A stretch of 64,000 nt of DNA from Adhaeribacter swui (GTDB lineage: Bacteria > Bacteroidota > Bacteroidia > Cytophagales > Hymenobacteraceae): the NCBI RefSeq assembly GCF_014217805.1, contig NZ_CP055156.1:1802585-1866584 (forward strand). Reading direction: 5' to 3'. The translations under genes were made by a program, and so were the position numbers. The notes beneath the pieces were generated by a model, which saw nothing but the letters and a program-made list of their open reading frames with translations, was not told the DNA's origin and did no database searches. The stretch's first letter is position 1; each line of letters starts with the position of its first letter. Shown here piece by piece: positions 14,718-50,935 of the stretch.

Positions 14718-14735
14718 ACCTGCCGCTTTTTAAAA
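14701..14735 (+). terminator. possible weak terminator after MscS gene
   Basis: aagcgg-N18-ccgcttttttaaaaaa overlapping the stop codon. Confidence 0.35.
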
Positions 14736-14815
14736 AATCAGTACTGTTACTAATTTATACTAGTTTTATTTTGACTATTAGCATGGAATAAGAAATAACA
14801 AATTTCTTCTGACAA

Positions 14816-25442: not shown

Positions 25443-28400
25443 TTAAAAATCAGCGGCTGCTACTTTATCCTGACTAAATTGGCCGAGTACTTCTTTAATG
25501 CCGCTTAAACCAGCCGCGATACTTTCCATTTGCGCCAGTACCTGCCCCACCTGGTTGTCTGCACCAAAAGTTTTTAATTTTAAGTTACGGCTAAAGGTTT
25601 CTTTAATGGCTTCCCAGCGTTGTAATTCTGCAGCATTAGCAAATCCGGTAAGTTCTTTAAACTTTAATAAGTTAGCTTCCGCGCCGGTGGCTAGGGTTTG
25701 TGCTTCGGCTTCGTAGTGCGCTAAAATCAAGGTTTCCAGTTCCTGGTCGTTCATCACCGGATTTACTTTTTCGGCCAGCTTGTTCATGTTGCGGTAAGAG
25801 CCTTGCAGTTTAAACGCCGGCTCGGTGCGGTACTCTTCGGCCTGTGCAGCCGAATAGATGTACGCGGTATTTACCCTTAGAATGACATCCCGGATTCTGA
25901 GTAACTTTTGAAATACTCTCACTAATTCGTTTATTTCTTCGGCAGCGTAATTGCCTTCCAGTTCTAAGCTTTCCTTTTCGCCGGTTTCGGCTACCCGGAT
26001 TAAGGTATATATATCTTGCTGGCTTTTGCTGGTGAGTTGGGCCAATGTAACGTTAGAGGTAAGGGCATTTTCCAGGTAACTCAATTTAAAAACTGCTTCG
26101 GTATCGCCGATGATGTCGCCTAAGTTGTAAATATCGGCCCGGTTCGCGAGCATGTCGGGTATCCGGAATTTTTCGCCGGTTTCGGTGTACGGGTTACCAG
26201 CCATAACCACGCATACTTTTTTACCCCGAAAATCGTAGGTTTTGGTTTTACCTTTGTACGTGCCTTCAATTTTGCGTTGGGCATCGCATAACGAAATAAA
26301 CTTTTGCAAGAATTCCGGATTACAATGCTGAATATCGTCCAGGTAAATCATGACGTTATCGCCCATCTCGAAAGCTAAGTTCAGCTTGCCTAATTCTTCG
26401 CGGGCTGCGGCATTCGGCGCTTCGCTGGGGTCTAAAGAAGTAACCTGGTGGCCAATGGCGGGGCCGTTAATTTTCATAAAAATCACGCCCAACCGGTTGG
26501 CAATGTACTCCATCAGTGTGGTTTTACCGTAACCCGGCGGCGAGAGCAGCAATAACATTCCCATCAGGTCGGTGCGTTTAGTATCGCCGGCCGTACCCAT
26601 TTGTTTCGCTAAGTTGGCGCCGATTAAAGGCAAATAAACCTGATCAATTAATTTGTTCCGCACAAACGAGGATAACACCCGGGGCTTAAATTCTGATAAG
26701 CGCAATTCTTCGGCAAAGGCCTGGGTTAAGCCTCTTTTTAGCTCGTTGAATTGTGTAAACCGGGGTGCTACCGTAGTGGCGTAGCTGGTTAATTTTTCCT
26801 GAAACGCGTGAAAATCTAGACGGTATTGCTGCTTTTGAACCAATGGGTGCGCGCCCTGCATACTCGTTACAATCTCGGTTAAAGCCGCGTGATGCACGCG
26901 TTGCAAATTAAAATCATGGGTAAACAAAAGTACTGCGGCTTCTGCTACATAATCGGGGTTAAAGCTACTACCAGCCTGCTGTAAAAAGGCTTTCAGCCAA
27001 TGCTGAATTAACTTAAACTGCTGTACCGGGTTGTTAGCAAAAGCTGCTACAGAAGTATCGTATGTACTTATAACTTTTTTATCTGTTAAATATTGCTGAA
27101 AACCCTGGTACAAGGCCGCAGCCTGGTCCGAGATAATAAAATGGTTCGGGCGAATTAATTCGTAAAACAAGTACTCGCCCGCCTTTTCACTGTTAGCGTT
27201 AGCGCACAACCCGGTTTCGTTTACAAACGCCTGGATACCTAGTTGCAATTCCTGAATAACAGCTTCGAACTGCCGGGTTTCGGGGAAAACCTGTAAAATA
27301 GCGCTTATTCCTTGTAACTGGTTGGTTAGTATTTCTTTCTGATCTTCGGCGATAAAAGCTTTCCAGAATAACTGCGTTGCTGCCCGGTCCAGGGGAGCGT
27401 AGCGCAACAGATCGGCGGTTTTTAAAAATCGAACCAGCACCGTTAACAACTGAGTTGCGTCCTGGTCGTGCACCCCTTTAATGTACCCTTCGTTGAAGCG
27501 CGCCGCCATAAATTTTTGCGTGTACTCCAACAGTTCGGCAGCGGTCAGCTTATGCAAATCATTCACCGACAAATAAGCGAAACCTTCGCTTGAAGCAAAG
27601 TCCGAGGCGCTTTGAGCAGCCTGCAAAATTTGAAAAGCCAGGTACTCGGCCCGGTACACCGTATTATTTTCGGATACCAGCGTTTGTTCCCAAATTGGCT
27701 GATAACTCAAAAAATGCGGGTCGGTTATTTTTTCAAAAAAGTTGGTGCCGGTAAGGTGGTAATACATGGCGTTGTCGCGCAGTACTACGCTTAAATCCAG
27801 CGGTTGGGTATTTACCGTAAAAGCATGCGGCCCAAATTGAATGATGTTCGAACCCACCACAAAAAGCTCGTTTTTGTCTTTTAGCTGCCTTACCGTGTCT
27901 TCTTTTAAGGCTTTTAAACGGCTTTGGATCGTATCGGCTTTCACGGTGTCGCCGATGTGCAATAACTCCACCACGGTATTCCGGACTTTTTCCACCATTA
28001 AATCCGCGGCAAAATACCCGTTTATATCGTTTACCGTGGTAAGTTTGGCTACCCGACCCTGCATGGCTTTTAAAATACGCTCAGCCGTTTGTTGCAGGTT
28101 AGTAGCACGTTTGTTTTGAGCTTCCTGTAAGGCGGCTTTTCTGGATTCAAAAGCGCTGTAAATTTCCTCGCGCTTGTGGCTAATCTGGTCGGTAAACTCG
28201 TCGAAATCCGTGAACTTGCCTTCCAGTTCTTCCAACTGCACCATTACTTTGGCCAGGTATTCTTCGCATTTAGCCGGCGTATCGCAAACATCCAGGTAAT
28301 TAATAACGCTTTGGCTGATAAGCTTGATCTGGGAGTTAAATTCGGCTTTGCCTTCCTGGCTTACTAGTTCTAAACGCTTGCGTTTTAAACCGGCTTTGGT

Positions 28401-30392: not shown

Positions 30393-30441
30393 AAGCGGCA
30401 GTAAACTAAAGTAATTTATGATTGAATGTTAAACGGCATTA

Positions 30442-30861
30442 TTACCCCCATTTGGTTCGGAGCAATTCCAGGTTGTTATCCAGCAAAGCCTTAATAGCTA
30501 GCAGGGCATCGTACTTGGTTTGGTTGGTTCGGCCAGTGAAGTATTTTTCGTTCAGTTTTTGAAAAAGTCCGAAGAAGTATTTTTTAATTTTTGGGCGTTT
30601 ATAGAAGATGTAAAACTCATAATCTTCTACATCGCCCACAATCGAAATACTCACGCCATGTTTGTTATAGGTATTTTCTATTTCCAGAGAAGGCGAAAAG
30701 TAAATTTTATCGCCTTTGGTCTCGGCTACGTTTACTTCGTTTAGCAGTTTCAGCCAGGGCACTTCGTTGAAAATATAAAAATAATCCTTGCGCTCCATAA
30801 TGGTTAGTTCCACGGCCTCGGGCTCGCAGGGCTTGCAAATACTATATCTGAAAGAAGACAT
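30442..30861 (-). CDS. hypothetical soluble protein (139 aa) in flotillin/AAA+ operon
   Basis: Same-strand ORF with 49-bp and 52-bp gaps to its neighbours; no TM or known motif. Confidence 0.55.
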   Translation of the reverse strand: MSSFRYSICKPCEPEAVELTIMERKDYFYIFNEVPWLKLLNEVNVAETKGDKIYFSPSLEIENTYNKHGVSISIVGDVEDYEFYIFYKRPKIKKYFFGLFQKLNEKYFTGRTNQTKYDALLAIKALLDNNLELLRTKWG

Positions 30862-30913
30862 AAAATTAAAAAATAGGGATTAGCTGCGCTTGGCAGACGC
30901 AGCTAACCCATTT

Positions 30914-33088
30914 TTAAACTAATTCCATACTTCTAACTAGTTTATCCGAGATGCCCATGGAAGTGGCAGTTTGCGTGAGTTCCTTCAGCAAACCGGTGGT
31001 GTTTTCGTCGGCGCTCTTCTGAATCATTTTCAGTAATAAAGCCGAGACACTCAGGTTGCGCACATCTTCTGACTTCATCCCGAACTGATTTAGGAAATAC
31101 TGCAGATTATCGCGGAACTGTACTTTACCGTTTCCGTTAGTATGGAAAAAAGTATCTTTCACAGTGCCCAAAACCTGGCTGTTATCCACTACCCGGTCCA
31201 CGGATTTACCTTTGGTAATCGAACCAATAATCTGGTCGAAGAACATAGTTTCGCCACCCACGATATCGATTTTGGCGGCTTTTAGAGCTTCGGCAATTAC
31301 TTCGGCCTGCGACGCAGCAATGTCTTTCTGTATGTTAATCTGCGCCAGTTCAATGGATTTATCTTTATCTAGGCGAAGTTTAAATTCTTCGTGGTCTTTG
31401 CCCACACCATCTAATTTGCGCATGGCTTCGGCTTTACTTTCAATGCCTTTGGCATCTACGGTAAATTTCTCGCTGTTTACGCGGGCTTCGGCTAGGCCTT
31501 TTTTCTCTTCGGCAATGGCTAAGTTCTCAATTACGTCGGCATCTGCTAAGCCTTTTTCTTTGGCTACTTTGGCAGCTATTAAGCCTACCTTTTCGTCTGC
31601 TTCGGCCTGCGCCTCGGCTTTTACTTTGGTGGCTTTGGCGGCCGCTACGGCTTGGCGTTCGGTTACTACCGCTTCCGCTTCTCCTTCTTTCTGGCGGGCC
31701 AAGGCTTTGGCTTCCATAACCTGGGCTTCGGATAAACCAAGGGCGGCAGCCTGGGTAGCTTCGGCTTCGGCCATTACTTTTAATGCCTGGGCACGGTTAG
31801 CCGCAGAAGCTTGCTGCGCTTCCGAATCAATGAGTAATTGTTTAGCTCGGAACTCGGCGGCCTGGCGGGCGGCTTCGGCGCCTTTAATTTCTTTCACTAA
31901 GGCGGCTTGCGCTACTTGCTCGGCGTTGGTAATGGCAACGGCTTTAACTCGCTCGGCTTCAGCAAAGGCGCGGGTATCTTTAATTTTTTCTTCTTCTTCG
32001 ACTACCGCTTTTTCTACGGTAACCCGCTCCCGGATAATACCCTGAATGTTTTTACGCTCTTCTTCAATGGCTTTTTCTTTTTCAATCTGAGCCAAGGCTA
32101 CAATGCGTTCTTTTTCGTTGGCTTCGAGTAAACGGGCCTGTTCTACGCGTTCAGTTTCCACGGCATCGGTGCGTTGTTTGCTGCGCTCGGCTACTAAAAT
32201 CTGGCGGTCGCGGTTTTGTTCGGCAATTTTTAATTCTTCGTCGGTGGCAATCTTAGCTTTTTCGGCTTTCAGGCGTTCTTCCTGACGTACTTTTTCGGCT
32301 TCGGCAAATTCCCTGGCTTTAATATTGGCAATCTCGCGACGTTGTTTTTCTTCGTTTTCGGCGAGCTGGCGTTCCAGTTCCAGAATGGTTTCCTGCGCTT
32401 CTACGTTTTGTTTTTTAATCGTTTTTTCTTTTTCGCGCTCAATTAAGTTCGATTGTATTTTCTGGCGGGCGGTTAAGTCAATAATTTTTTTAATTCCTTC
32501 GGCATCCAGAATGTTGTTTTCGTTGAGGTTAGTTAGTGGGGTTTGCTCCAGGTAATCAATAGCGCAGTCGTCGAGTACGTAGCCGTTTAAATCGGTGCCG
32601 ATGGTTTGTAAAATCTGGCGTTTAAAGTCGTCGCGGCTTTGGTATAAATCCACAAAATCGAAATGCTTGCCTACGGTTTTTAAAGCTTCGGAGAACTTGG
32701 CATCGAACAAACCTTCCAGGGCGGTATGGTCCGAAGCGCGTTTACAACCAATGGCTTGCGCTACTTGCACCACGTCTTCGGGCGTTTTATTTACCCGTAA
32801 AAAGAAGTTTACTTTAATGTCGGCCCGGAGATTGTCTTTACAAATCAAGCCTTCGGGCCCGGTGCGGGAAATAACGATGGTTTTTAAGGTGATATCCATT
32901 ACCTCTAATTTGTGGATAATGGGTACCACAAAAATGCCGGAGAAGGAAACTTTAGTATCGCCTAAACCCGTCCGGACCATGGCTTCGCCTTGAATGGCTT
33001 TTTGGTACATGCGGATAACAATGGCGATAAAACCAAAAAGTACAACCGCCAGAATAGCAAGAATAGACCAGGATAATTGTGCAATCAT
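30914..33088 (-). CDS. flotillin family / SPFH (band 7) domain protein, YqiK-like, with long coiled-coil tail
   Basis: N-terminal TM; SPFH core (GEAMVRTGLGDTKVSF...VISRTGPEGLICKDNLRADIKVNFFLRV); ~400 aa Ala/Glu/Lys-rich coiled-coil. Confidence 0.85.
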   Translation of the reverse strand: MIAQLSWSILAILAVVLFGFIAIVIRMYQKAIQGEAMVRTGLGDTKVSFSGIFVVPIIHKLEVMDITLKTIVISRTGPEGLICKDNLRADIKVNFFLRVNKTPEDVVQVAQAIGCKRASDHTALEGLFDAKFSEALKTVGKHFDFVDLYQSRDDFKRQILQTIGTDLNGYVLDDCAIDYLEQTPLTNLNENNILDAEGIKKIIDLTARQKIQSNLIEREKEKTIKKQNVEAQETILELERQLAENEEKQRREIANIKAREFAEAEKVRQEERLKAEKAKIATDEELKIAEQNRDRQILVAERSKQRTDAVETERVEQARLLEANEKERIVALAQIEKEKAIEEERKNIQGIIRERVTVEKAVVEEEEKIKDTRAFAEAERVKAVAITNAEQVAQAALVKEIKGAEAARQAAEFRAKQLLIDSEAQQASAANRAQALKVMAEAEATQAAALGLSEAQVMEAKALARQKEGEAEAVVTERQAVAAAKATKVKAEAQAEADEKVGLIAAKVAKEKGLADADVIENLAIAEEKKGLAEARVNSEKFTVDAKGIESKAEAMRKLDGVGKDHEEFKLRLDKDKSIELAQINIQKDIAASQAEVIAEALKAAKIDIVGGETMFFDQIIGSITKGKSVDRVVDNSQVLGTVKDTFFHTNGNGKVQFRDNLQYFLNQFGMKSEDVRNLSVSALLLKMIQKSADENTTGLLKELTQTATSMGISDKLVRSMELV

Positions 33089-33160
33089 GTTTTAGAAAGT
33101 AATTGTAGAAATGCTTTTTAAATTTTGAGAATTGAGTAAGTCTGTTTTTTAAAAATTTTA

Positions 33161-33781
33161 CTAGCTAGCAAGACTTTGGTAAGGCTCTATGAGGTAGAAT
33201 TGCTTGGCCGCGTTGTAATCAATAATTAACCCGGTTTCACCTTTTTTAAGGTAAGCCCCCGATGTAGCTTTCACATTCAGGAGCAGCAGCGATCCGGTGG
33301 TCCGGACGGTAGCCTGCCCCATTTCGGTGGCGGTAACGGGCAAAGTAACCGTGCAAACCCGTCCAATAACCGAGGCTTTGGAATCATGCTCTTTTTCGAG
33401 GGCGGCAAATATTTTAACAAACGGATAGGTTAATACTTTGGAAGCAAGCAGGCTGAAGATGAAAAGGGGTATTAGCAGCACAAAGCCAACCAAACTTTCG
33501 CCGGTATTTAAATAATAGTTAAGGAGTATAGATGCGGCCCAAAAAGGCAAAGCCACAAAACTGAAAAAGATCATGAATGGGATTTTGCCCACGTTAAAGA
33601 AGCCCAAAGCATGATTTAACCAGACGATCGCGTCGGAGCTATCCATTTCCAGATCCATGTCCAGCATGTCTAAATCCAGAATACCCAGGATTACCACTGC
33701 CCAATAAAGCAGGGCAAATAGCAAAAGGATGCTAGGAATGATGTTGACGCTGGCACTAGCCGCCTGTAAAAACTCCGACAT
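33161..33781 (-). CDS. NfeD-like / YqiJ-like membrane protein (DUF1449-like) with C-terminal OB-fold
   Basis: Multi-TM N-terminus, C-terminal soluble beta-rich segment; gene order with flotillin mirrors E. coli yqiJ-yqiK. Confidence 0.65.
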   Translation of the reverse strand: MSEFLQAASASVNIIPSILLLFALLYWAVVILGILDLDMLDMDLEMDSSDAIVWLNHALGFFNVGKIPFMIFFSFVALPFWAASILLNYYLNTGESLVGFVLLIPLFIFSLLASKVLTYPFVKIFAALEKEHDSKASVIGRVCTVTLPVTATEMGQATVRTTGSLLLLNVKATSGAYLKKGETGLIIDYNAAKQFYLIEPYQSLAS

Positions 33782-34029: not shown

Positions 34030-34497
34030 ATGTCGCTTTTCAGCAAATCCGAGAAAGTAACGCAGGCAGTATATTTTAGTCCGGGAACGGAGTGCTTAGA
34101 TGCCATACTGGAGCAAATAGAGGCGGCGCGTACGTCGCTCAAAATATGTGTATTTACCATTAGCGACGACCGGATTACCCGGGCTATTTTACAGGCGCAC
34201 CGCCGCGGCATTAAAGTAAAAATTGTGACCGATAACGAAAAGCTTTACGACCAAGGTTCAGATATCCGGCAATTAGCGCAAGCGGGCATTCCGGTACGGA
34301 TAGATAATACGCCCAATCACATGCACCACAAGTTTGCCATTGTAGATAACACGGTAGTGGTAACTGGCTCCTACAACTGGACCCGCAGTGCTGCCCTGTA
34401 TAATCATGAAAATATTGTACTAACCTCGGCTAAACCAATTGTAGCCGGGTTCTGTGAAGAGTTTGATCGCTTGTGGGCAGAGATGGAGGCATTGTAA
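34030..34497 (+). CDS. phospholipase D-family (HKD) Nuc-like endonuclease, cytoplasmic
   Basis: Single HKD motif HMHHKFAIVDN...GSYNWT; size (155 aa) and layout like Nuc/PLD-nucleases; no signal peptide. Confidence 0.8.
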   Translation: MSLFSKSEKVTQAVYFSPGTECLDAILEQIEAARTSLKICVFTISDDRITRAILQAHRRGIKVKIVTDNEKLYDQGSDIRQLAQAGIPVRIDNTPNHMHHKFAIVDNTVVVTGSYNWTRSAALYNHENIVLTSAKPIVAGFCEEFDRLWAEMEAL

Positions 34498-36959: not shown

Positions 36960-39900
36960 ATGAAATACCTTTTAGCTTCCCTTATCCGGGAAAATACTTT
37001 CGGAGGAAGCTTCTTGCCACATTGGTTGATTAATAACCGATTTAATACCTTTTTCACGCCCCGATTAGTACCAATCCGAGTAGTTGCAGTATTGCTTTTA
37101 TTATTTACCGCTATGCAAGCCCAGGCTCAAGAAGTTTTGTTAGGACTCACGTCGGATTATGGTCCGCAAGGTGGCGGCACGGCCTTTTCTATTAAAACCA
37201 ATGGGAATGATTTTGCTGTTCATAAAACTTTTACCAAACTAGGTTCAAACCCGGGCGGCGAGCTGATTCAGGGCAAAGATGGTAACTTTTACGGGATGAC
37301 TGCCCGGGGAGGTGCCAGTGATTTCGGAACCATTTTTAGAATGACGCCGGCTGGTACAATTACTATTATGCATCATTTTGCCGGTTTCGATGGCAATGCG
37401 CCGGGTAGTAATAATCTTATACAAGCTGCCGACGGTAACTTTTACGGTATGACCTCTTCTGGCGGTATGAATAATAATGGAGCGGAACCTGGCATTGCTT
37501 TTAGAATAACTCCTGGCGGGGAGTATAAGGTAATTTACAACTTTACGCGTAATGAAGGTTACCGTCCTTACGGCGATTTACTGCAAGGCCCGGATGGCAA
37601 CTTTTACGGCATGACGTATTATGGCGGTACTTTTGATAAAGGTACGGTTTTTAAATTAACGCCATCAGGCACCTATACCGTATTGCATCATTTTAATGGT
37701 ACGTCCCGGGGTGGCTGGCCTACCGGCAATTTAGTGCTAGGAAACGATGGCAATTATTACGGCGTTACTACCAGTGCTGGCGCCAACCAGTTAGGTACTA
37801 TTTTTAAAATAACCACCGCTGGCACTTTTACTTTGTTACATACTTTTGAATTAGCTACTGGTGGTACTCCGGTGGGTAGCTTGGTAAAGGGTAAAGACGG
37901 GAACTTCTATGGCGTAACTACCGCGGGCGGCGATAATTATAGCGGTACTATTTTCCGAATAACGGCCAATGGCGATTACAAAGTACTGCACCATTACGGC
38001 TTCGATGCCATAGGAAATACTCCAAAAAGAAGTTTGATTTTGGGAAAAGATGGAAACCTGTACGGTACCACCATGAACGGCGGAGACTGGTTTAATGGAA
38101 CCATTTACAAAGTAACGCCGAGTGGTATTGTAAGTGCTTTACATGCCTTTTCACCTTCGGAGGATGGTGGCCGGGCAAGCGGTCTAATGCAAGCTGCTGA
38201 TGGTTATTTATACGGTATGAACGAAATTGGCGGGCCTCAAGGTGATGGTGTTATCTATCGTATTTTACCCAATGGTACCAATTTTAAAAAATTAGTAGAT
38301 CTGCCCGGTTCTTTTGGCGGAGTAGCTCCCCGGGGTGGGTTGGTACAAGGCCCCGATGGCTTTTTCTACGGCATGACCGAATGGGGCGGTGAGTATAATC
38401 ACGGTACTATTTTTAGGTTGTGCTCCGATGGCTCTTATAAAATCTTACGGTCACTGGATGATGTAAACGATGGAGGATATCCCCGGGGTGACTTGCTGCT
38501 GGGGAAAGACGGCAATCTTTACGGTTTAACCAGCCATGGTGGAGTTAATGGCAGTGGTACGTATTTCCGGATAACACCCCAAGGTAATTTTACGGTCTTG
38601 TATTCCTTCCAAAACGACGATACCGGCTACTCGCCCTGGGGAACTTTACTGGATGGCAACGATGGTTATTATTATGGCATGACCAATGCCGGAGGCGAGT
38701 TATTATCCGGCGTTATCTTTCGGGTTACCCCCACTGGTGATTATACCGTATTACACAGCTTTGATAATTATGAGGATGGTTCTTCGCCCCAAGGTAATTT
38801 AATTAAAGGTAAAGACGGTAATTTTTACGGCCTTACCAACGTAGGCGGCGATTACAATACCGGTACTTTTTTTAAAATGGCACCCGATGGCACCGTTACC
38901 AAACTGCATTCTTTCTACCAGTTCGAAGATGGCGATAAACCATCTGGTAGTCTGGTGCAAGGCAAAGACGGTAATTTTTACGGGATGGCTGCCCGGGGAG
39001 GTAAGAATGGGCATGGTACTATTTTCCGTTTTACACCAACCGGAAAAATAACCGTTCTGAAGTTTATGACGGATGAAATCTCGGATGGTGCTAACCCCCA
39101 TGGTAGTCTGGTAATGGATAAGGAAGGCAATTTTTATGGTTTAACCTGGGGTGGTGGGCATAACTTTAGCGGTGTTATTTTTAAAATTACGCCCAAAGGG
39201 AATTATACCGTTCTGCACCATTTAGATGGACCCAAAGAAGGCAGAAGCGCTTTCGGTAGTTTAATTTTCCAGAAGGCTAATCCAACGGCATACGCGCAGC
39301 GTGTTACCACAGCCGTGAACACGGCTAAAGTTATTACCCTAAAAGGAACTGGTGGTAGTCCGCTGGTCTACGAAATTATATCCCAACCAAAGAATGGTAC
39401 CCTAAGTGGTTCCGGCGCCAAACGTACCTACACGCCTAAATCTGATTTTAGTGGTACAGATAGCTTTACTTACCGGGTAAACTGGGGCTGCCAAAGTTCT
39501 ACGGTTGCAACCATTACCATTCAGGTAGGTACCCCGGTTGCCACTGCTATCCGGATTAATGCCGGTGGAAATGCTTTAACTACCACGCAAGGTAACTTTA
39601 GCGCCGATGCTTATTTTACCGGGGCAACTACTGTTTCTACTACGGCTGCTACCATTGCCAATACCGCTGATCCTGGCCTATACCAGGATAACCGTCGGGC
39701 GAGTGCAAACAACGGCAGCTTCCAGTATGCTATTCCGGTAACCAACGGGCAGTACACCGTAAAGCTGCATTTTGCCGAAACTTTCCATACTACTGCCGGA
39801 AAACGCCAATTTAACGTTACCGCTGAAGGGAGTAGTTGGCTCAACAATTATGATATCTACGTCGCTGCCGGAGGTGCCCGCCAAGCCATAGTAGCTACCC

Positions 39901-40286
39901 GCAATGTAACGGTAAGCGATGGAACCCTAGATTTAAACTTCATTTCCAAGGTAGATAAAGCTTGTGTATCCGCGATTGAAGTATTACCCGCTTCCGGAAC
40001 CGAACAAATTGAAGCAGCTACGCCAACAAAAGAAGAGACAGGTTTGGTAACTCGCTTATATCCTAATCCGGTTACTGACCAATTTACCGTAGAACTAAAA
40101 GTACCCGCCGAGCAAGTTAGTTTCTCGATTATAGATGCTTCAGGGATAACCGTAAAAACTCATATTTCAACCCGGGCCCAAGCTGATAAACTGGAGTTCC
40201 TGGTGGACCAACTGCAACCAGGCTTGTATACTTTGCTGGTACATGCCAATAACAATCAGCAGGTTTTGCGTTTTTTAAAAAATTAG
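36960..40286 (+). CDS. T9SS-secreted repeat protein: GloVer-like ~50-aa tandem repeats, Ig-like domain, malectin-like domain, Por C-terminal sorting domain
   Basis: ~14 repeats of GxDGNFYGMT..GG..xGTIF(R/K)xTPxG; Ig-like domain near aa 780-860; malectin-like IRINAGG...YTVKLHFAE; C-terminal LYPNPVTDQFTVELK...VLRFLKN T9SS type A signal. Start codon uncertain because of a long pre-signal extension. Confidence 0.75.
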   Translation: MKYLLASLIRENTFGGSFLPHWLINNRFNTFFTPRLVPIRVVAVLLLLFTAMQAQAQEVLLGLTSDYGPQGGGTAFSIKTNGNDFAVHKTFTKLGSNPGGELIQGKDGNFYGMTARGGASDFGTIFRMTPAGTITIMHHFAGFDGNAPGSNNLIQAADGNFYGMTSSGGMNNNGAEPGIAFRITPGGEYKVIYNFTRNEGYRPYGDLLQGPDGNFYGMTYYGGTFDKGTVFKLTPSGTYTVLHHFNGTSRGGWPTGNLVLGNDGNYYGVTTSAGANQLGTIFKITTAGTFTLLHTFELATGGTPVGSLVKGKDGNFYGVTTAGGDNYSGTIFRITANGDYKVLHHYGFDAIGNTPKRSLILGKDGNLYGTTMNGGDWFNGTIYKVTPSGIVSALHAFSPSEDGGRASGLMQAADGYLYGMNEIGGPQGDGVIYRILPNGTNFKKLVDLPGSFGGVAPRGGLVQGPDGFFYGMTEWGGEYNHGTIFRLCSDGSYKILRSLDDVNDGGYPRGDLLLGKDGNLYGLTSHGGVNGSGTYFRITPQGNFTVLYSFQNDDTGYSPWGTLLDGNDGYYYGMTNAGGELLSGVIFRVTPTGDYTVLHSFDNYEDGSSPQGNLIKGKDGNFYGLTNVGGDYNTGTFFKMAPDGTVTKLHSFYQFEDGDKPSGSLVQGKDGNFYGMAARGGKNGHGTIFRFTPTGKITVLKFMTDEISDGANPHGSLVMDKEGNFYGLTWGGGHNFSGVIFKITPKGNYTVLHHLDGPKEGRSAFGSLIFQKANPTAYAQRVTTAVNTAKVITLKGTGGSPLVYEIISQPKNGTLSGSGAKRTYTPKSDFSGTDSFTYRVNWGCQSSTVATITIQVGTPVATAIRINAGGNALTTTQGNFSADAYFTGATTVSTTAATIANTADPGLYQDNRRASANNGSFQYAIPVTNGQYTVKLHFAETFHTTAGKRQFNVTAEGSSWLNNYDIYVAAGGARQAIVATRNVTVSDGTLDLNFISKVDKACVSAIEVLPASGTEQIEAATPTKEETGLVTRLYPNPVTDQFTVELKVPAEQVSFSIIDASGITVKTHISTRAQADKLEFLVDQLQPGLYTLLVHANNNQQVLRFLKN

Positions 40287-42540: not shown

Positions 42541-43884
42541 CTATAACTGGTATTCCTGAATTTTCCGGTAAAGCGTGGTTAAACCAATGTGCAGCAGACG
42601 AGCCGTTTCAGTTTTATTGCCGTGGGTTTGTTGCAGGATTTTAGCAATATGATTGCGTTCCACGGTACTCAGGGCAGTTTCGCTGATTTCAGAAGCTGGT
42701 AGCGGCGTGAACTGCTGAAACTCCGGGGGCAACAAGGGGAGAGTTAGCGTATCACTATCGGCCAGAATAACGGCGCGTTCTATCACATTTTTTAATTCGC
42801 GGATGTTGCCCTGCCAGGGATATTCCTGCAGCTTTTGCAGAAAAGCCGCATCCATTTTGTTAATACGTCGGGTTAGTTTAGCCGCGTAGCGGTTCATGAA
42901 AAAAGTAGCAATGTCCGGAATATCGGCTTTCCGGTCGCGGAGTGGGGGTACTGTAATTTTAAAACTAGACAGGCGGTAGTATAAATCCAGGCGAAAATGC
43001 CCGGCTTCGGCTTCTTGTTGCAGGTTCCGGTTAGTGGCCGCGATAATGCGCACATTTACTTGCACCGGCTTGGTATCGCCGATCTTGGTAAAAGTCTGGG
43101 ATTCCAGTACCCGCAGAAACTTCGCCTGCAATTCTAAAGGCAGTTAGCCGATTTCGTCTAAAAACAATGTGCCCCCGTGGGCTTCTTCAAACAAGCCTTT
43201 TTTATCGGTGAGCGCACCGGAAAAAGCGCCTTTGCGGTAGCCAAATATTTCGGATTCGAGTAAATCTTTCGGGAAAGCGCTGCAGTTTACCGCCACAAAG
43301 GGTTTTGTATTACGGCTACTGCCGCCATGGATGGCCTGGGCAAATAATTCTTTCCCGGAGCCGGTTTCGCCCTCTAATAAAACCGTGGAATTGGTAGGCG
43401 CTACCCGGCCGGCCAGGTCTTTAGCTTGTTTAATGGCCGCCGAATGCCCCAAAATGGCCTCAAAACTGTATTGTCGGCTCACCTGCTTTTCCAGCTCTAA
43501 TACGCGTTGCTGCAAAGCGGCTTTTTCCATGGCTCGGCTAACCAGCGGAATAATTTTATCGTTATCGTCGCCTTTAATTAAATAATCAAAAGCCCCGTTT
43601 TTCATGGCAGTTACCCCATCTGCAATAGTACCATACGCGGTGAGTACAATAATTTCGATGGCTGGGTAAAGTGCTTTTATTTTGGCGGTAAGTTCTATGC
43701 CGTTGCTATCCGGCAGTTTTACGTCGCTGAGGACCAATTGAATGGGTTCTTTTTCGAGTAAACGCAAACCGGCTTTGCCCGTGGGAGCTTCAAAAACCTG
43801 GTAGCCTTCTAAGCCAATAATGCGGGCCAGTAAACCGCGCAGCTTATCTTCGTCGTCGATAATTAATATATTTCCGTTGGTCAT
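42541..43884 (-). pseudogene. sigma-54-dependent Fis-family response regulator (NtrC-like) interrupted by an in-frame TAA
   Basis: 43144..43884 encodes REC + start of sigma-54 AAA domain (GETGSGKE Walker A, GAFSGA motif) ending ...[11 protein letters not shown]. The same frame continues LPLELQAKFLRVLESQ... (42541..43143) through the Fis HTH. The TAA occupies the position of the conserved Glu in DEIGELPLELQ, so it is a GAA-to-TAA change. Confidence 0.75.
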
Positions 43885-43910
43885 TTTTTAAATTTTTGCC
43901 CATTTGTTGC

Positions 43911-46900
43911 TTACCGGCGCGGTCGTACAATATGCCTTTCCTGGCGGATTAAGGTGCCGGTTCGGAGTGAGTCTTCCACCAGCAAATCTATCTGTTCCCG
44001 GAACTCATCGGTGAGCCGGGGAAAGCCGAACAGCTTACTGGTAGCAGGCGCAATGTCTTCAGCGTTGATGCCGTACGATTCGGTAATTACTTTTTGAATG
44101 ACCAGCTTTATTTCTTCCGGGGCAATTACATCCAGGTCCCGGGCAGACGCGGGTAATTGGCTGCGGTCGCGTGGTTCCGGTTGCTTCATGGAGGGAAGCC
44201 ATAAAAAATCACCTTGTCGCTGGTAAGCATTTTGTTGCAAGCCAAAATTGATGGCAGCTTCCAGGGCGGCTTTTATCCGGGGACCAACTTTAGGTACTTC
44301 GGCGGCTTCGGTTATCCGCCGGCTTACTTCCGTTACGTGTACCGGACTTTCTACCTGCACTACCTGCCACACCCACTGGGCCAAAGTAGCTACAGGTACT
44401 TCGGGTAAGGGCATATTTATATTTTTAATCGGAAGGTTAGCTACCTGGTACAGGGGCAAACCCGTTTTTTGCTCCGGGCTTGCAGCCGTATGCCGGCTAA
44501 CCAAGGCATCTTCTGGCTTTAATTTGGCCGACGAACCAGGCGTTTTAGACGCGGAAGATTTACCCATAGCTTGTTCTATGGCAGCTACTAGTCGGTTTAG
44601 TTCAGCTTCGGGGTTCCGGAACCAATCAGTGCTCCAGACGTGGTACAGATTCCAGCCCAAACTTTCCAGCACCGACTGACGTAAGCGGTCCCGGTCGCGG
44701 GCCGAGCGGGCACTGTAATACGTAGCGCCGTCGCATTCAATGCCGAGTACATATCTGCCCGGTTCCTGCGGGTCAACCACGGCAAAATCCACGTAAAATC
44801 CGGCGGAGCCTACTTTTGGTTTTAATTGATAACCTAATTTCGTCAAGGCCTGGTAAACGATTTCTTCGAAGGGCGCCGCCTCATCTTCTGATGCAATAAT
44901 GTTTTCCCCGGTTGTTAAATGGCCGTTCTGTGCGTAGGTTAAAAAAGTTTTAAAGGCTTGCACCCCGCGCGCAGGCGTGCGGTTTAAGTCAATATCGTCG
45001 GGAGATAGGTTGGTAAATATTTCACAGCGCAGGCGGGCGCGGGTAATAAGTACGTTTAAACGACGTTCGCCACCGGTGCTGTTTAAAGGGCCAAAGTTCA
45101 TGGTTAAGTTACCTTCGGCGGTGCGGCCGTAGCCGGTACTGATAAAAATTACATCGCGCTCATCGCCCTGCACGTTTTCTAAATTTTTTACAAAAAACGG
45201 TTCGTTGGGGTGGGCCTGAAAATAGGCTTCGGCTTCCGGATCGGTTTTGCGTAAGGTTTCGAGTTGGTTGATAATGGCCTGCATCTGCGCCATGCTGAAA
45301 GCAGCCACGCCTAAGGTTAGTTCGGGCATGGTGCGGGCGTGCTGCATAATAGCTTGAGCTACGGTTTCGGCTTCCTGCGGATTGGTGCGCGTTTTGCCGC
45401 GGTCGTAAAAGGTATGGGGCAGGTGATGGTAAATTAAACCAATTTCCTGGCGGCCCGCATCCGGGCTCGGGAAAATAACCAAGCGGTTTTCGTAAAATTC
45501 CTGGTTAGATACGGCAATCAGCGATTCGTGGCGGCTGCGGTAATGCCAGCGCAACATGCGCTGCGGAGCGCCCTGGGCCGCGAACAAACCCAGAATACTT
45601 TCTACATCCGTAGTAATATTTTCTTCTTCTACTTCTTCCTCGTTTACCAGCGAATCAAAGAAACTGGTGGGCGGCATTTGTTTGCTATCGCCCACTACCA
45701 CGGCTTGTTTAGCGCGCATAATAGCCCCAAACGCATCTACGGGCTTTACCTGACTGGCTTCGTCGAAAATAACCAAATCAAATTGCAAGCACTCGGGCGG
45801 AAGAAAGTTAGCAATGGAAAGCGGTCCCATCATAAATACCGGTTTTATCGCCTGAATGGCGTTCCCGGCTTTAGTCATTAGTTGCCGGATAGGTAAATGA
45901 CGCGCTTTTTTCTCAAATTCGCGACGCAGAATACCTAACTGGCCCCCGGCTTGGTGCTGGGGCAATCTTTGCCAATGCGCTAGCGCGAGCTTAGCCCGGT
46001 TATACGCCAGCATTAAAGCATCTAGTTCGTTAAATTTTAAGATTACCTCTTCGTGGCCAGCCCGTTGAAACTGCTGCAAAGCCGGGCGTTCGGCGTAGGC
46101 TTTTTCCAGCAACGCTTCGAGCCAGGTTTGTCGGAAAGCGGGGTACAGGTAAGCGCCAGCTTCCGGCCAGGTTAAGGTCTGGTTTACTATTTCTTGCAGG
46201 CCTTCTTGTTGTAAGCGAGTTGTTAAATTATTCCAGCTTACCAGCTGGTGCAACTCGGGTAAATGAGTTTGCCATTGTTCCAGTAAAGAAACCTGATTGG
46301 TGAATGGTAAGGCATCCAGATAATTTTCTTCACCAAAACGGAGAATTTCATCCAGTACCAGCAACTGTTTTACTTCGGCTAGGCGGGCGCGATGGTTTAA
46401 CAAATGTTGCTCCAGTTGCCGGGCGTGTGGTTGGAGAGAAGCTAAATTAGGCTCCCCGGCCAAATAATCGAGTAGGGTTGCCGGTACTGTCTGGTTGGTT
46501 ACATCCTGATGCCAATCGGTAAGCCAGTTTTTTAAAATATTTAGATGCGGCCAATCGGAGCGTTCCGCCCGCCATTGTTTCCCGAAAATGGTTTGCCCAA
46601 ATTCCTGATATTGCTGGATAACTTTTTGCTGCCGGTTAGCTTCCAGTATGGCATCGATTAATTTTAATTGTTCATTGGTACTCTCGGGCAAAACGGTTTT
46701 GCTCCAACCAGCTAGCTTTTTTTTGCTCCGGCGGTAAGCACTAGATAAGAAACGCCACCATTTCTCCCCGTAGGTCATTAAGTTCTCCCGCACTTCCAGC
46801 GCTTCGGTAGTAGCGTCCCAGGCTTCGGGCAGCAGCTTATCCTGGAATTGATCCTGGATAGTGGCGTAGGCTTTTCCGGCAGTTAGTAATTGTTCCAGCT

Positions 46901-48653
46901 CAGCTTGTTGGTGCAACCAGCTACTTGATTTTACCGCTACCCCAGCGTAATCAGGGCTATTTAGCAAACGATTTACCAGGGCACTTAAAGCCGTGGTTTC
47001 GGAGCGGTTAGTGGGCAATTCTACCGAAATAATTAAAGCTAATTGTTGCGCGGTTGGCTGCAGCACCATTATTGCCTGGCGGGCTGCAGTTAAAGCCTGC
47101 GCTATTTGGTTTTCTTCGGCGGGCAGTAATTGCTGGCGCTGGCTTCCCCAGAATAATAGTTTAGTAGGTTCGCCTGTTTGTTTTAAGCGGGCCTGTAATT
47201 CCTGAACCAACGCATCGCGCCGGCGAAATTCATCGCGCGACCAGTTCAATAGGGTTGGTAAAGCAAATCGGGGTAAGTCTGTCTGCGGGTACTGTTGCCG
47301 CAATTGCAGCAATTCGCCATATACATCGTACGTGGTTAAATCGCTTTGGGCAATGGGTTTGTTTACGGCTTCGCAGTAGCTGTTCAGGCGTTCGCGCAAT
47401 TGCAAGAGTAAGTTTAGTTCGCTTTCCTGTTCTTTCACCTTGGGCTTTCCTAAGTTCAGGGTACGGGCGAGTTCTTTGGTTACTTCTTTTTTATTTGTTT
47501 TATGGCTGTGCAATTCCAGACAGGCTTCACCCAAGCCAACTTTATCCAATCGGCGTTTTACCACTTCCAAAGCCGCCATTTTTTCGGCCACGAACAACAC
47601 CGTTTTGCCTTGCCCGATGGCTTCCGAAATAAGATTAGTAATGGTTTGCGATTTACCGGTACCAGGAGGGCCTTGAATAATTAAATTGCGACCTTGGTTT
47701 ACATCCAGAATGGCCAGCGTTTGCGACGAATCGGCATCTACAACCTGACGTACTTCGGTGGGGTTTAAATGCGGGTCGAGGTGGTCTTCGTCGGAGATGA
47801 GCGGAGCTGGTTCCTGAAAGCCGTTTTCGTGCAGCAAGGCTTGCAGCAAAGGGTGCCGCGCAGGACCTTTTTCATCAGACCAATTAGCGGCATCCAGGTC
47901 GTTGTACATCATAAATTTCCCGAAAGAGAAGAAGCCCAGCGCAATTGCCGTAGAATTAATCAGCCAACCTTTACGCCCCACAATTTCTTTCCAGACTTCA
48001 TCAAAATAACCGGTAACATCTACTTCTTCGGTATCAGGCAGTTCCGGAATATGAAGGTCAAAATCGGCTTTCATCTTGGCAATCAATGATAAATTTTCGC
48101 CTACTTCGCCGCCGGTATACCGCAATTGAAACCGCTCCCGCGCCGAGGATCGCACTAGTTCAACGGGTATTAATAAGAGCGGCGCCTGTCTTGCATCCTC
48201 GGTGTTGCTGGCTTCGTACCAAGTAAGCGTGCCTAGGGCCAGGTACAGTATATTTATGCCTTGTTCTTCCACAAACAGCCGGGAGGCATGATAGGTCTGC
48301 AATAGGCGGTTTTCCAGTTTGGCCGTGGTTTCGCGGGTTTGCAGCTTATTGTCGGTTTGGGCCGGGGTAATGGTTATCGTTTCGCCGGGGCTTTTTCTAT
48401 CTGCCAATGGGTTTTGGATGGTATCCAGGATGCTGTTGGCCGTTTTGCTATCCAGAGCCAGGAAGGTCATGGCTTTGCCTTCGGTCACCAGCAAGCGGTA
48501 CACTTCGGCGGGTACTTCGTTTACAATTTCTACTCCTTTGGCTTGCAAGGGCCGGTAGTTCAGGAGGGGATTACGTAAACTTAAATCGAGTAAATCGCGG
48601 CGCGAAGCTTCCAAACGGGTACTTACTTGGGATACGGCAGTCATGGGCAACAT
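43911..48653 (-). CDS. DUF4011-type large Upf1-like SF1 helicase with C-terminal DUF559/PD-(D/E)xK-like endonuclease and DUF3320-like tail
   Basis: 1580 aa. N-terminal LLDLSLRNPLLNYRP region (DUF4011-like). Helicase motif I IIQGPPGTGKSQTITNL, motif II VIFDEASQV, later motifs present. C-terminal GFYVDFAVVD...GIECDGATYYS...D..R...LGW..YHVW (Vsr/DUF559-like). Terminal ~200 aa DUF3320-like. Confidence 0.8.
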   Translation of the reverse strand: MLPMTAVSQVSTRLEASRRDLLDLSLRNPLLNYRPLQAKGVEIVNEVPAEVYRLLVTEGKAMTFLALDSKTANSILDTIQNPLADRKSPGETITITPAQTDNKLQTRETTAKLENRLLQTYHASRLFVEEQGINILYLALGTLTWYEASNTEDARQAPLLLIPVELVRSSARERFQLRYTGGEVGENLSLIAKMKADFDLHIPELPDTEEVDVTGYFDEVWKEIVGRKGWLINSTAIALGFFSFGKFMMYNDLDAANWSDEKGPARHPLLQALLHENGFQEPAPLISDEDHLDPHLNPTEVRQVVDADSSQTLAILDVNQGRNLIIQGPPGTGKSQTITNLISEAIGQGKTVLFVAEKMAALEVVKRRLDKVGLGEACLELHSHKTNKKEVTKELARTLNLGKPKVKEQESELNLLLQLRERLNSYCEAVNKPIAQSDLTTYDVYGELLQLRQQYPQTDLPRFALPTLLNWSRDEFRRRDALVQELQARLKQTGEPTKLLFWGSQRQQLLPAEENQIAQALTAARQAIMVLQPTAQQLALIISVELPTNRSETTALSALVNRLLNSPDYAGVAVKSSSWLHQQAELEQLLTAGKAYATIQDQFQDKLLPEAWDATTEALEVRENLMTYGEKWWRFLSSAYRRSKKKLAGWSKTVLPESTNEQLKLIDAILEANRQQKVIQQYQEFGQTIFGKQWRAERSDWPHLNILKNWLTDWHQDVTNQTVPATLLDYLAGEPNLASLQPHARQLEQHLLNHRARLAEVKQLLVLDEILRFGEENYLDALPFTNQVSLLEQWQTHLPELHQLVSWNNLTTRLQQEGLQEIVNQTLTWPEAGAYLYPAFRQTWLEALLEKAYAERPALQQFQRAGHEEVILKFNELDALMLAYNRAKLALAHWQRLPQHQAGGQLGILRREFEKKARHLPIRQLMTKAGNAIQAIKPVFMMGPLSIANFLPPECLQFDLVIFDEASQVKPVDAFGAIMRAKQAVVVGDSKQMPPTSFFDSLVNEEEVEEENITTDVESILGLFAAQGAPQRMLRWHYRSRHESLIAVSNQEFYENRLVIFPSPDAGRQEIGLIYHHLPHTFYDRGKTRTNPQEAETVAQAIMQHARTMPELTLGVAAFSMAQMQAIINQLETLRKTDPEAEAYFQAHPNEPFFVKNLENVQGDERDVIFISTGYGRTAEGNLTMNFGPLNSTGGERRLNVLITRARLRCEIFTNLSPDDIDLNRTPARGVQAFKTFLTYAQNGHLTTGENIIASEDEAAPFEEIVYQALTKLGYQLKPKVGSAGFYVDFAVVDPQEPGRYVLGIECDGATYYSARSARDRDRLRQSVLESLGWNLYHVWSTDWFRNPEAELNRLVAAIEQAMGKSSASKTPGSSAKLKPEDALVSRHTAASPEQKTGLPLYQVANLPIKNINMPLPEVPVATLAQWVWQVVQVESPVHVTEVSRRITEAAEVPKVGPRIKAALEAAINFGLQQNAYQRQGDFLWLPSMKQPEPRDRSQLPASARDLDVIAPEEIKLVIQKVITESYGINAEDIAPATSKLFGFPRLTDEFREQIDLLVEDSLRTGTLIRQERHIVRPRR

Positions 48654-49052: not shown

Positions 49053-50084
49053 TTAGTGAATGGTTGCTAGGGCTCTTTCCAATACCCGGTCCTTGCCGCC
49101 AAGTACTTCGGCTTTGGTGTTTTTTACCAGGACATCCGGAGCAATACCGATTCCTTCGTAGCTTTTACCATCGGCGGGCCTAATGTCGTTTACACTGATG
49201 GTGTAGTACCAGCCGTTCGGTAGCTCGCGGCGGGCTTGGTCGGAGTAGCAACCCAAGGTAGTATCGCCAATTTGCACAAAGGGTTTTCCGGCTTTTAAAG
49301 CCCACAGCAGAATTTCTCCGGAACTGGCTGTCCAGCGGTTGGTTAATACTACTAGTGGCTTGGTGTACTGGCTTTTGCCTTCGGGTTGTACGTACCATTT
49401 TACCGGAGCTGTAAAGTCGGTATGATTAGGGCCGTTGCGTTTGCGCGAGGTCATAAAAAAGTTTTTTGAGGTAGCAAACCGGCCGGCAATATAGGCACTA
49501 CTTTTATCGTAACCGCCCTCAAAATCGCGCAGATCCAGTACTAAACCGTCGGTATTTTTCATATAATCTAATAGGGTATCCATGGCTTTAGCGTAGTACT
49601 TTTCATCTAACCCGGAATCACGCAAATGGATATAACCTAGCTCGGGGGAGAGTTTGCCGTAAGTAATGGATTGGCTGTAATCTTTTACTTCGGTGAGATA
49701 CTGATCTTTTACTACCTGCAACGAGAAATCGTCGTGCTGTAATTGGCTTACAATGCCCCCATCGTAGCGCATGGGGTTTGGGCCCGGCGCCATTATGGTA
49801 AGATGGCCGTCGTTAAAATGCGCCAACATATCCGAGAAAATTTTAAATAATTCGGCATCGGTGGTAGTGGGTTTTACCTGCGGGCGGTACTGTTGATAAA
49901 GTGCGTTCCAGTCTACGTTTTTAACCGAGATAAAAGCCGATAAGCGGTCGTACTCGTGCCACAAAGTTTCAAAATTTTGCTCCGGGTTATTAGGGGTAGT
50001 TGGTCCCACCAGCGTTTCTTCGCAAGCGGTTAGATTGAGAAGCAGAATTAAAAATAGCAGCGGTTTTATGATTAAATTTTTCAT
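49053..50084 (-). CDS. S41 family peptidase (C-terminal processing/tail-specific protease-like), lipoprotein
   Basis: Start trimmed to MKNLIIKPLLFLILLLNLTAC (lipobox). The longer track ORF would overlap the upstream gene. S41 core LVVLTNRWTASSGEILLWALK. Confidence 0.75.
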   Translation of the reverse strand: MKNLIIKPLLFLILLLNLTACEETLVGPTTPNNPEQNFETLWHEYDRLSAFISVKNVDWNALYQQYRPQVKPTTTDAELFKIFSDMLAHFNDGHLTIMAPGPNPMRYDGGIVSQLQHDDFSLQVVKDQYLTEVKDYSQSITYGKLSPELGYIHLRDSGLDEKYYAKAMDTLLDYMKNTDGLVLDLRDFEGGYDKSSAYIAGRFATSKNFFMTSRKRNGPNHTDFTAPVKWYVQPEGKSQYTKPLVVLTNRWTASSGEILLWALKAGKPFVQIGDTTLGCYSDQARRELPNGWYYTISVNDIRPADGKSYEGIGIAPDVLVKNTKAEVLGGKDRVLERALATIH

Positions 50085-50101
50085 GTTTAACAGATAGTGA
50101 C

Positions 50102-50935
50102 TTAAAACAGGTAATTGCATTGTAGATGGGCGGCATGGGAATAAGCCGTAATAGCTTGCGGATTCTGGGCGTGCAGCCATTGAAAGTCGTAAGCAACTCC
50201 TGTTTGCCAATGGCGGCCCAACCGGTACTGATAAGCTGCTCCTAATGAAATTTTTTGAAATTCATGGATAAAAGCCAGGTTCGTGCCTTCTTTAAAAAAA
50301 GCGCGGAAATTGCTGTGCTCCGGGTCCGAAATAACGTTGCTGTAAGGCAACCGCGAAACCAGGGCTACTACCGGCATGGCTCCTTTAAACTGAATTTGCT
50401 GTTTGGCGTTGAGCTTTTTTTCGTATTGAACAGCAGCATTCAGGGTAGCAAAACTGTTGGCCCAGGTACTCCACATGCCAATGTTGTCGGAGTAACCCAA
50501 CCATTCTTGCAAGACAATACCCGCAAACATTTCTTTGGTGCCGCCAGTCCGGAGCTTTCGTAAGTACCCCGCTTCTAATTGTCCGAGGTACAGGGTAGGA
50601 GCATGCACAAACTGGCTCGACGTAGTTTCGCCGGAGAAGTTGGTGCTGGTAAAAGTGTACGTACGGGCACCCAATCCTTTCGGCAAGGCAGTTCCGGTTT
50701 GCGCCTGCACATTTACAAACGACCGGGATTTGATACCAGCGTGTTCATAACCAATGCTTACCCCGTTTAAATTGGCCTGGTAGATATTAGGGGAGGCTTG
50801 CTTATCCAGGAAGTGGAAACTGCTGCGTTTATAAGCCAAGGTAAGTTTCGATAATTTCAGGTCCTGAGCCTGAGTTTTTACGCTGCAGCACAACCATACT
50901 AGGGCGGCAAAAGCAGTAATATAAATTTGTTTCAT
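50102..50935 (-). CDS. hypothetical secreted/outer-membrane beta-barrel-like protein
   Basis: Signal peptide; alternating amphipathic beta-strand pattern; terminal aromatic residue (..CNYLF). Confidence 0.5.
   Translation of the reverse strand: MKQIYITAFAALVWLCCSVKTQAQDLKLSKLTLAYKRSSFHFLDKQASPNIYQANLNGVSIGYEHAGIKSRSFVNVQAQTGTALPKGLGARTYTFTSTNFSGETTSSQFVHAPTLYLGQLEAGYLRKLRTGGTKEMFAGIVLQEWLGYSDNIGMWSTWANSFATLNAAVQYEKKLNAKQQIQFKGAMPVVALVSRLPYSNVISDPEHSNFRAFFKEGTNLAFIHEFQKISLGAAYQYRLGRHWQTGVAYDFQWLHAQNPQAITAYSHAAHLQCNYLF

Follow-up and report, generated by a model that had tools for sequence, protein, structure and literature searches.

This locus raises the question of whether a single large gene of Adhaeribacter swui, which codes for a helicase fused to a nuclease, serves anti-phage defence or the upkeep of the cell's own genome. 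The gene lies at 43911..48653, on the minus strand, of the analysed window (64,000 nucleotides of contig NZ_CP055156.1). It was read as one uninterrupted 4.7-kb open reading frame (ORF) of 1580 codons, from ATG to TAA (stop codon 43911-43913). The NCBI record for A. swui contains the same protein at 100% identity, with a start placed 3 residues later (1577 amino acids, aa) and the product name 'DUF3320 domain-containing protein'. The helicase-nuclease ORF was confirmed as real, with its catalytic motifs intact. Promoter and terminator scans of the locus gave counts no different from those in shuffled sequence. As judged by sequence comparison, the protein belongs to an already catalogued candidate anti-phage family (PDC-S37/ProA, sister of Hhe) and is not new; the A. 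swui protein is most likely a single-gene helicase-nuclease defence enzyme.

Family membership was assigned with the models of PADLOC and NCBIfam. PADLOC PDC-S37 was matched end to end with 2059.8 bits (residues 8-1572 on positions 4-1541 of the 1550-position model), and the protein falls in the same length class and has the same five-part architecture. NCBIfam equivalog NF058533, 'anti-phage protein ProA', was matched with 1589.1 bits against a cut-off of 1500, so that the threshold was passed narrowly. From DUF4011 onwards to the C-terminus this match is collinear, and it covers model positions 354-1903 only. The first ~350 of the 1903 model positions are without a counterpart in the 1580-aa protein, which begins 7 residues ahead of the match, and coverage of the whole model fails. 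Ten relatives, long forms of 1804-2210 aa included, were scored against the same model and gave 1439-1636 bits, some above and some below the cut-off; the N-terminus of the model was covered by none of the ten. Because relatives fall on either side and none covers the N-terminus, the cut-off appears to split a broader family, and the assignment to ProA is borderline. True ProA is probably a distinct, longer subfamily. A full-text literature search did not return a primary publication behind the name ProA, and a literature search did not return a paper mentioning PDC-S37. When annotated E. coli genomes were queried for ProA with Klebsiella-derived DNA, only Hhe or generically named DUF4011 genes were matched. 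PDCs have been proposed by 'guilt-by-embedding', and most await experimental validation (PMC12988326). An initial annotation, made from the letters alone, described the family as lacking an assigned function; this is outdated, since both PADLOC and NCBIfam already catalogue it.

The domain reading given in that annotation (DUF4011, an SF1B, i.e. superfamily 1B, helicase with GPPGTGKS and DEASQ, a Vsr-like nuclease and DUF3320) was borne out by Pfam search. All parts are encoded on the minus strand. The N-terminal DUF4011 module (residues 1-295, 47769..48653) has an alpha/beta fold and contains the DUF4011 match (residues 21-194, E 1.8e-40). It is followed by the N-terminal part of helicase domain 1A (residues 296-445, 47319..47768), which carries Walker A GPPGTGKS (residues 328-335, 47649-47672) and the first of two AAA_11 stretches (residues 308-468). 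Domain 1A is split by an all-alpha insertion of ~430 residues (446-873, 46035..47318), at the site of the regulatory 1B/1C domains of Upf1-like helicases. The C-terminal part of 1A and domain 2A (residues 874-1215, 45009..46034) hold the second AAA_11 stretch, AAA_12 (residues 1025-1214) and the motifs DEASQ (residues 964-968, 45750-45764), VVGDSKQMPPT, LRWHYRSRHESLI, VQGDERDV and GGERRLNVLITRAR. The MTES_1575/Vsr-like PD-(D/E)xK endonuclease (residues 1255-1360, 44574..44891) was delimited by PF18741 and by conserved residues; the Pfam match to MTES_1575/PF18741, a Vsr-type restriction endonuclease (REase) fold, covers residues 1262-1359 (E 4.4e-37). The earlier label DUF559/Vsr holds for the Vsr-like superfamily, to which both models belong, and not for the model itself, which is PF18741 and not PF04480/DUF559; E. 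coli Hhe matches both. The C-terminal tail (residues 1400-1580, 43914..44456) contains DUF3320 (residues 1418-1461, E 3.1e-10). In the MTES_1575 prototype, an SF1 helicase has been described together with a Vsr REase and a pair of winged-helix domains overlapping DUF3320 (Anantharaman et al. 2013, PMC3710099).

Conservation was examined in an alignment of 95 full-length homologues and in a second set of 20 from several phyla. The helicase motifs GPPGTGKSQTITN, FDEASQV, VVGDxxQxPPT, LRWHYRSxHESLI, VQGDERDV and GGERRLNVLITRA were invariant across the alignments, with the Walker A motif unchanged in 20/20. Invariant or nearly invariant nuclease residues were E1263, D1289, E1306-C1307-D1308, Y1312, R1316 and RDRDR (1319-1323); among them E1263, D1289 and E1306 were conserved in at least 90% of the aligned homologues, and D1308 was invariant. 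Conservation was lowest in the insert (446-873), the linker (1361-1400) and the extreme C-terminus, and the helical insert was the least conserved part of the protein. As read from these motifs, the helicase core is complete and of the SF1B (Upf1/SMUBP-2/Sen1-like) ATPase-helicase kind, and the Vsr-type domain is a predicted metal-dependent endonuclease with its acidic residues intact.

Among solved structures, the nearest by sequence are SMUBP-2 and Sen1, which are Upf1-like SF1B enzymes; only the ATPase core is matched (E 1e-8 to 1e-11). A profile of the nuclease and tail returned RAP domains only, marginally (E 0.004), when run against solved sequences. No deposited structure of any family member could be detected by sequence. 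AlphaFold2 models were built for the two family-specific modules, and both the DUF4011 module and the ~430-residue helical insert were predicted with confidence and are without a solved structural relative; for the modelled insert, no specific structural match was found. The defining features of Upf1-like SF1B helicases are all present: Walker A, Walker B (DEAS/DEXX), motifs III-VI, AAA_11 and AAA_12. With SMUBP-2/IGHMBP2, Sen1, Upf1 and DNA2 the protein shares AAA_11/AAA_12, the motifs GPPGTGKS, DEASQ, GDxxQLPP and RLNVxxTRA, and an insertion inside domain 1A, the site of their accessory domains. The likeness is, however, confined to the ATPase core; the insertion here is far larger and all-helical, and those enzymes have neither a Vsr-type nuclease nor a DUF4011 fusion. 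The NCBIfam model TIGR00376 (IGHMBP2 family) is also matched.

The closest characterised relative is Hhe. Hhe was reportedly introduced by Gao et al. in 2020 as an E. coli single-gene defence system that combines a helicase with a Vsr endonuclease; statements on its activity were drawn here from secondary papers. The PGAP-annotated E. coli Hhe (1911 aa) was used for comparison. By BLASTP, identity is 42% over DUF4011 and Walker A and 46% over the C-terminal half of the helicase and the nuclease. The two proteins are collinear paralogues with the same order of DUF4011, split SF1 helicase and MTES_1575 nuclease, and they have the nuclease motifs IECDG and RDRDR in common. The central insert of Hhe, however, is ~725 residues long and does not align with the ~430-residue insert here; Hhe also carries extra sequence within DUF4011, the full lengths are 1911 aa for Hhe and 1580 aa here, and DUF3320 was not matched in E. 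coli Hhe at E<=0.001. On the NCBIfam Hhe model NF042953 the A. swui protein reached 1029.1 bits, split over three stretches, and so fell short of the cut-off of 2000; PADLOC Hhe gave 746 bits in three pieces, compared with ~2060 for PDC-S37. On these scores the protein is a short-form sister of Hhe, and PDC-S37 is its best description.

Hhe has been reported to act against lambda, T3, T7 and PhiV-1, and the point mutation E1731A in its Vsr domain abolished defence (bioRxiv 10.1101/2022.06.16.496414). In the E. coli Hhe compared here, the residue aligned with the IECDG Glu is E1727, and the published E1731A is probably this same residue with the numbering offset by 4. Several T7 DNA-metabolism genes and a gene of Bas63 have been reported as triggers of Hhe, and expression of the Bas63 gene was toxic in hhe+ cells only (bioRxiv 10.1101/2024.10.10.617714). 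A phage-encoded counter to Hhe has also been reported. The settings of the two genes differ: E. coli Hhe is accessory and lies among insertion sequence (IS) elements and DUF262 genes, whereas the A. swui gene is a syntenic resident. The hhe gene was detected in 232/5426 complete E. coli genomes by a short blastn match, which makes this count a lower bound. In E. coli SCEC020023 (locus L088, 7698-13433), hhe was seen amid IS3/IS21/IS256 fragments, two DUF262 genes, a broken N-6 methylase gene and a group II intron.

The initial annotation had compared the protein with Nhi and Mokosh, and this comparison did not hold, the closest system being Hhe. PADLOC MkoA (90 bits) and MkoC (66.8 bits, residues 958-1216) were matched on the C-terminal half of the helicase only, and Nhi models were not matched at E<=0.01. 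In phage defence, Mokosh and Nhi likewise combine an SF1 helicase with a nuclease, by fusion or as a pair, but neither is matched over the full length and the nucleases differ (PLD, i.e. phospholipase D family, in MkoC; an N-terminal nuclease in Nhi). The resemblance to them is one of analogy only.

The distribution of the family was surveyed with one genome per species. Relatives were found in at least 598 species of Bacteroidota, Firmicutes, Acidobacteriota, Chloroflexota, Planctomycetota, Proteobacteria and a few archaea. With the DUF4011 profile at E<=1e-10, 6,677 of 1.84 billion protein clusters were retrieved, mostly of ~1560-1600 aa. The P. aeruginosa homologue P0299 (locus L089/L090, 10001-14767) is 42% identical end to end, insert and tail included. 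It stands in a type I restriction-modification (R-M)/McrBC operon in the order HsdM-HsdS-McrB-McrC-[helicase-nuclease]-HsdR-SNF2, followed by two integrases, which is the type of context that defines PDCs. Its protein cluster is small (18 sequences). Identity among the copies of Pseudomonas, Aeromonas, Rahnella and Klebsiella is 72-76%, and this similarity across four genera points to horizontal spread in the gamma-proteobacteria. A Thermicanus copy lies among SLFN_AlbA_2+NB-ARC, FRG and DndB genes, and a Singulisphaera copy among ordinary genes. Embedding of the PDC kind was thus found for the P. aeruginosa homologue and loosely for Thermicanus, and not for A. swui, whose copy is neither inside nor beside any recognised defence system. 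Copies on plasmids are mostly on chromids and megaplasmids, with few on true plasmids; ~100 Ralstonia megaplasmid records carry one, at similar coordinates in the records listed. An origin as a phage gene was rejected, as only 3 partial matches were found in 50,697 phage records. N-terminal fusions of the conflict type occur in other family members, among them HEPN and transglutaminase domains in MTES_1575 (PMC3710099). A metagenomic relative, P0249 (1888 aa), was seen to carry an N-terminal Ser/Thr kinase (like PknB, MAD6 of MADS and PglW of BREX) on the DUF4011-helicase-nuclease body. A large DUF4011 gene, which may be of this or another subfamily, has been reported as core in every P. aeruginosa isolate and as flanking a defence hotspot (Johnson et al. 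2023, PMC10250203).

Neighbouring genes were compared all against all in 80 loci. No conserved partner gene was found by this clustering, and the absence of a conserved neighbour in the 80 loci suggests that the protein acts as a single gene. Synteny was seen within genera only (Hymenobacter, Chitinophaga, Pedobacter), and in Hymenobacter and Chitinophaga the genes that stay next to it code for transporters. The 143 immediate neighbours in 36 diverse loci gave few strong defence matches, namely PglZ, BrxA, HEC-01A/B, PDC-S44, a type II methyltransferase, mad3 and PtuA-like ATPases, each in 1-3 proteins; most neighbours were metabolic, transport or signalling genes. This census was counted per family and not per locus and had no matched background control, and is to be read qualitatively only. 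The initial annotation had set defence islands against a uniformly housekeeping context for the homologues, and the outcome was mixed: the context is housekeeping-like in Bacteroidota, with defence islands elsewhere.

Within Adhaeribacter the gene occupies the same chromosomal slot in four species (A. swui, A. pallidiroseus, A. arboris and A. radiodurans), and full-length orthologues were found in at least six. Synteny around the locus is gene for gene in A. pallidiroseus. In A. arboris and A. radiodurans the orthologue has a GFO/IDH oxidoreductase block on one side and an aspartokinase-like gene on the other, and these two loci are without the S41 peptidases and without the sigma-54 regulator. 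The A. aquaticus homologue (62% identity) is in a different neighbourhood. The GC content at third codon positions (GC3) of the gene is 0.522, compared with 0.49-0.575 for its neighbours, and identity to the A. pallidiroseus orthologue is 88.8%, compared with 80-96% for neighbouring genes. Because of this synteny, native GC3 and neighbour-like divergence, the Adhaeribacter copy is regarded as resident and vertically inherited, under ordinary purifying selection. None of the four syntenic Adhaeribacter copies, that of A. swui included, was seen to be flanked by defence genes. The earlier guess of single-gene defence stands at the level of the family, through PDC-S37, ProA, paralogy to Hhe and the P. 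aeruginosa island, and finds no counterpart in the surroundings of the A. swui copy.

Downstream of the gene lies an NtrC-type sigma-54 response regulator (42541..43884, minus strand), which is not part of the system. A regulator with a premature stop 27 bp downstream had been noted earlier, and this was upheld, with a spacer of 26 nt (43885-43910) between the helicase gene and the regulator ATG. The regulator has receiver, sigma-54 AAA+ and Fis helix-turn-helix domains in one reading frame that is broken by a single in-frame TAA (DEIG*LP; GAA->TAA at 43144-43146). In A. pallidiroseus the regulator is intact (447 aa), with GAA at the interrupted codon. The stop was seen in one assembly, and may mark a true pseudogene or a sequencing error. 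The regulator was considered as a functional partner and rejected; it is an incidental neighbour, since A. arboris and A. radiodurans, two of the four syntenic genomes, have the orthologue without it. In A. pallidiroseus (locus L001, ~14735-14923) a palindromic insert of ~160 bp, flanked by duplicated AAATTTAAAAAATGAC, was seen between the helicase gene and the regulator; it resembles a miniature inverted-repeat transposable element and is absent in A. swui, where the 26-nt spacer stands.

The reading we favour, and hold to be probable, is that of a stand-alone nucleic-acid surveillance enzyme of the Hhe/PDC-S37/ProA type, which would be autoinhibited, load on structures of invading nucleic acid, translocate 5'->3' and cut DNA. 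At family level a defence role is supported because PDC-S37 is matched over the full length, the ProA cut-off is passed, Hhe is a paralogue and the P. aeruginosa homologue sits among R-M/McrBC genes. The enzyme would be held inactive in uninfected cells, probably through the DUF4011 module and/or the helical insert. It would load on nucleic-acid structures that arise in the replication of a phage or other invader, such as single-stranded DNA, free ends, and replication or recombination intermediates. Translocation would be driven by ATP, with the 5'->3' polarity taken from superfamily membership only. The Vsr-like domain would then nick or cut the tracked DNA, by which the invader DNA would be destroyed or, if the nuclease were unrestrained, the cell arrested. 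No partner protein would be required. Several observations weigh against this proposal. The gene behaves as a resident in Adhaeribacter (four-species slot, GC3 like that of its neighbours, neighbour-like divergence), and it also keeps genus-stable positions beside transporters in Hymenobacter and Chitinophaga. Few of the 143 neighbours in 36 loci are defence genes and the majority are metabolic or transport genes. For a defence gene, ~50% identity between phyla along 1580 residues is a high value. The ProA score lies only marginally over its cut-off, with close relatives at 1439-1636 bits straddling it, and that membership is borderline by sequence. No tested member of the short-form subfamily was found in the literature searched, and substrate (DNA or RNA), trigger and outcome are all inferred. 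PDCs are, moreover, mostly without experimental validation (PMC12988326).

Much of the same evidence bears on a role in housekeeping genome maintenance, in which the enzyme would process the cell's own aberrant DNA (stalled forks, R-loops, mismatched or damaged DNA) and any action of its relatives against phages would be a by-product or a function co-opted later. The first protein described with the Vsr fold was a repair enzyme, and the nearest solved helicases, SMUBP-2 and Sen1, are cellular DNA/RNA-processing enzymes. Such a role would also fit the Adhaeribacter synteny with native codon usage and neighbour-like divergence, the genus-stable loci beside transporters, the predominance of non-defence neighbours across the 36 loci, the high conservation across phyla, the Ralstonia megaplasmid copies and the DUF4011 gene reported as core in all P. 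aeruginosa isolates (PMC10250203). That core gene, however, may be of another subfamily, and P0299 in that species represents an 18-sequence cluster. In ~90 loci no conserved link to replication or repair genes was found, members of the full-length family sit in an R-M/McrBC island and spread horizontally in gamma-proteobacteria, the DUF4011 module is far from universal (at E<=1e-10 it occurs in ~6,700 protein clusters out of 1.84 billion), and the paralogue Hhe is accessory in E. coli (232/5426 by the short blastn match) and lies among IS elements. Housekeeping maintenance is accordingly considered unlikely. A related suggestion joins the two roles: the family would have become core-like and vertically inherited in several Bacteroidota genera (Adhaeribacter, Hymenobacter and Chitinophaga), and it might carry out housekeeping surveillance of aberrant DNA or R-loops, with anti-phage activity as one expression of a general genome-integrity function. 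We regard this as doubtful, and offer it tentatively.

The helicase could instead track RNA or an RNA:DNA hybrid that the Vsr/RAP-like domain cuts, with phage transcripts or transcription-replication conflicts as targets and not duplex DNA. SMUBP-2 and Sen1 as the best solved helicase relatives, the TIGR00376 match, the MkoA and MkoC (Mokosh helicase component) matches on the C-terminal half of the helicase and the RAP domains returned by the nuclease profile (E 0.004) would all agree with this, but all of them are weak matches that show no more than membership of a superfamily. The nuclease, moreover, falls in the REase/Vsr family (PF18741, E 4e-37), the tail has been described as winged-helix DNA-binding domains (PMC3710099), and Hhe has been grouped with nuclease-containing systems and its Vsr domain called an endonuclease (bioRxiv 10.1101/2022.06.16.496414). 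An RNA- or R-loop-directed enzyme therefore seems improbable. Least credible is an inactive relic, a once-mobile defence gene now decaying like the nonsense-mutated regulator beside it, whose state indicates that the region tolerates gene decay. The 4.7-kb ORF is unbroken, all helicase and nuclease motifs are intact, full-length orthologues persist in at least six Adhaeribacter species, and divergence from the A. pallidiroseus orthologue is inside the range of the neighbours; decay is hardly to be believed on this record.

Other genes of the window were recorded alongside. Three consecutive genes at 25443-33781 (minus strand) code for a 1649-aa DUF3686 + DUF7902 + AAA+ protein and for proteins of 724 aa and 206 aa; the latter two are without a Pfam match, and all three are without a PADLOC or NCBIfam match. 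This block, ~10 kb from the helicase gene, appears to be a variable insert, since it is absent at the syntenic place in A. pallidiroseus. A 155-aa PLD-family (NucT-like) nuclease is encoded at 34030-34497 (plus strand), with weak DrmC and DpdK matches below the cut-offs, and is kept at the same place in A. pallidiroseus (89.7%). The gene at 36960-40286 (plus strand) encodes a secreted protein of 1108 aa that has 13 stretches matched as GloVer repeats and, besides these, a malectin domain and a type IX secretion system (T9SS) sorting tail. Its GC3 is 0.409 against ~0.52 around it, and it is absent from the A. pallidiroseus locus and present at the corresponding place in A. radiodurans. At 49053-50935 (minus strand), an S41 peptidase ORF (TTG start 50210) overlaps an upstream 277-aa ORF by 109 nt; its true start is probably further downstream, because the A. 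pallidiroseus annotation is shorter (343 aa).

Several thousand protein clusters in bacteria and some archaea make up the DUF4011 helicase-nuclease family, to which Hhe, ProA and PDC-S37 belong. The compact short form of 1580 residues, with two modules that are confidently modelled, may be a convenient target for biochemistry and cryo-EM. The A. swui copy itself adds little novelty; it illustrates two lifestyles of the family, in mobile R-M islands in the gamma-proteobacteria versus as a stable resident gene in Bacteroidota. This contrast makes it testable whether single-gene "defence" enzymes also serve the maintenance of their own genome.

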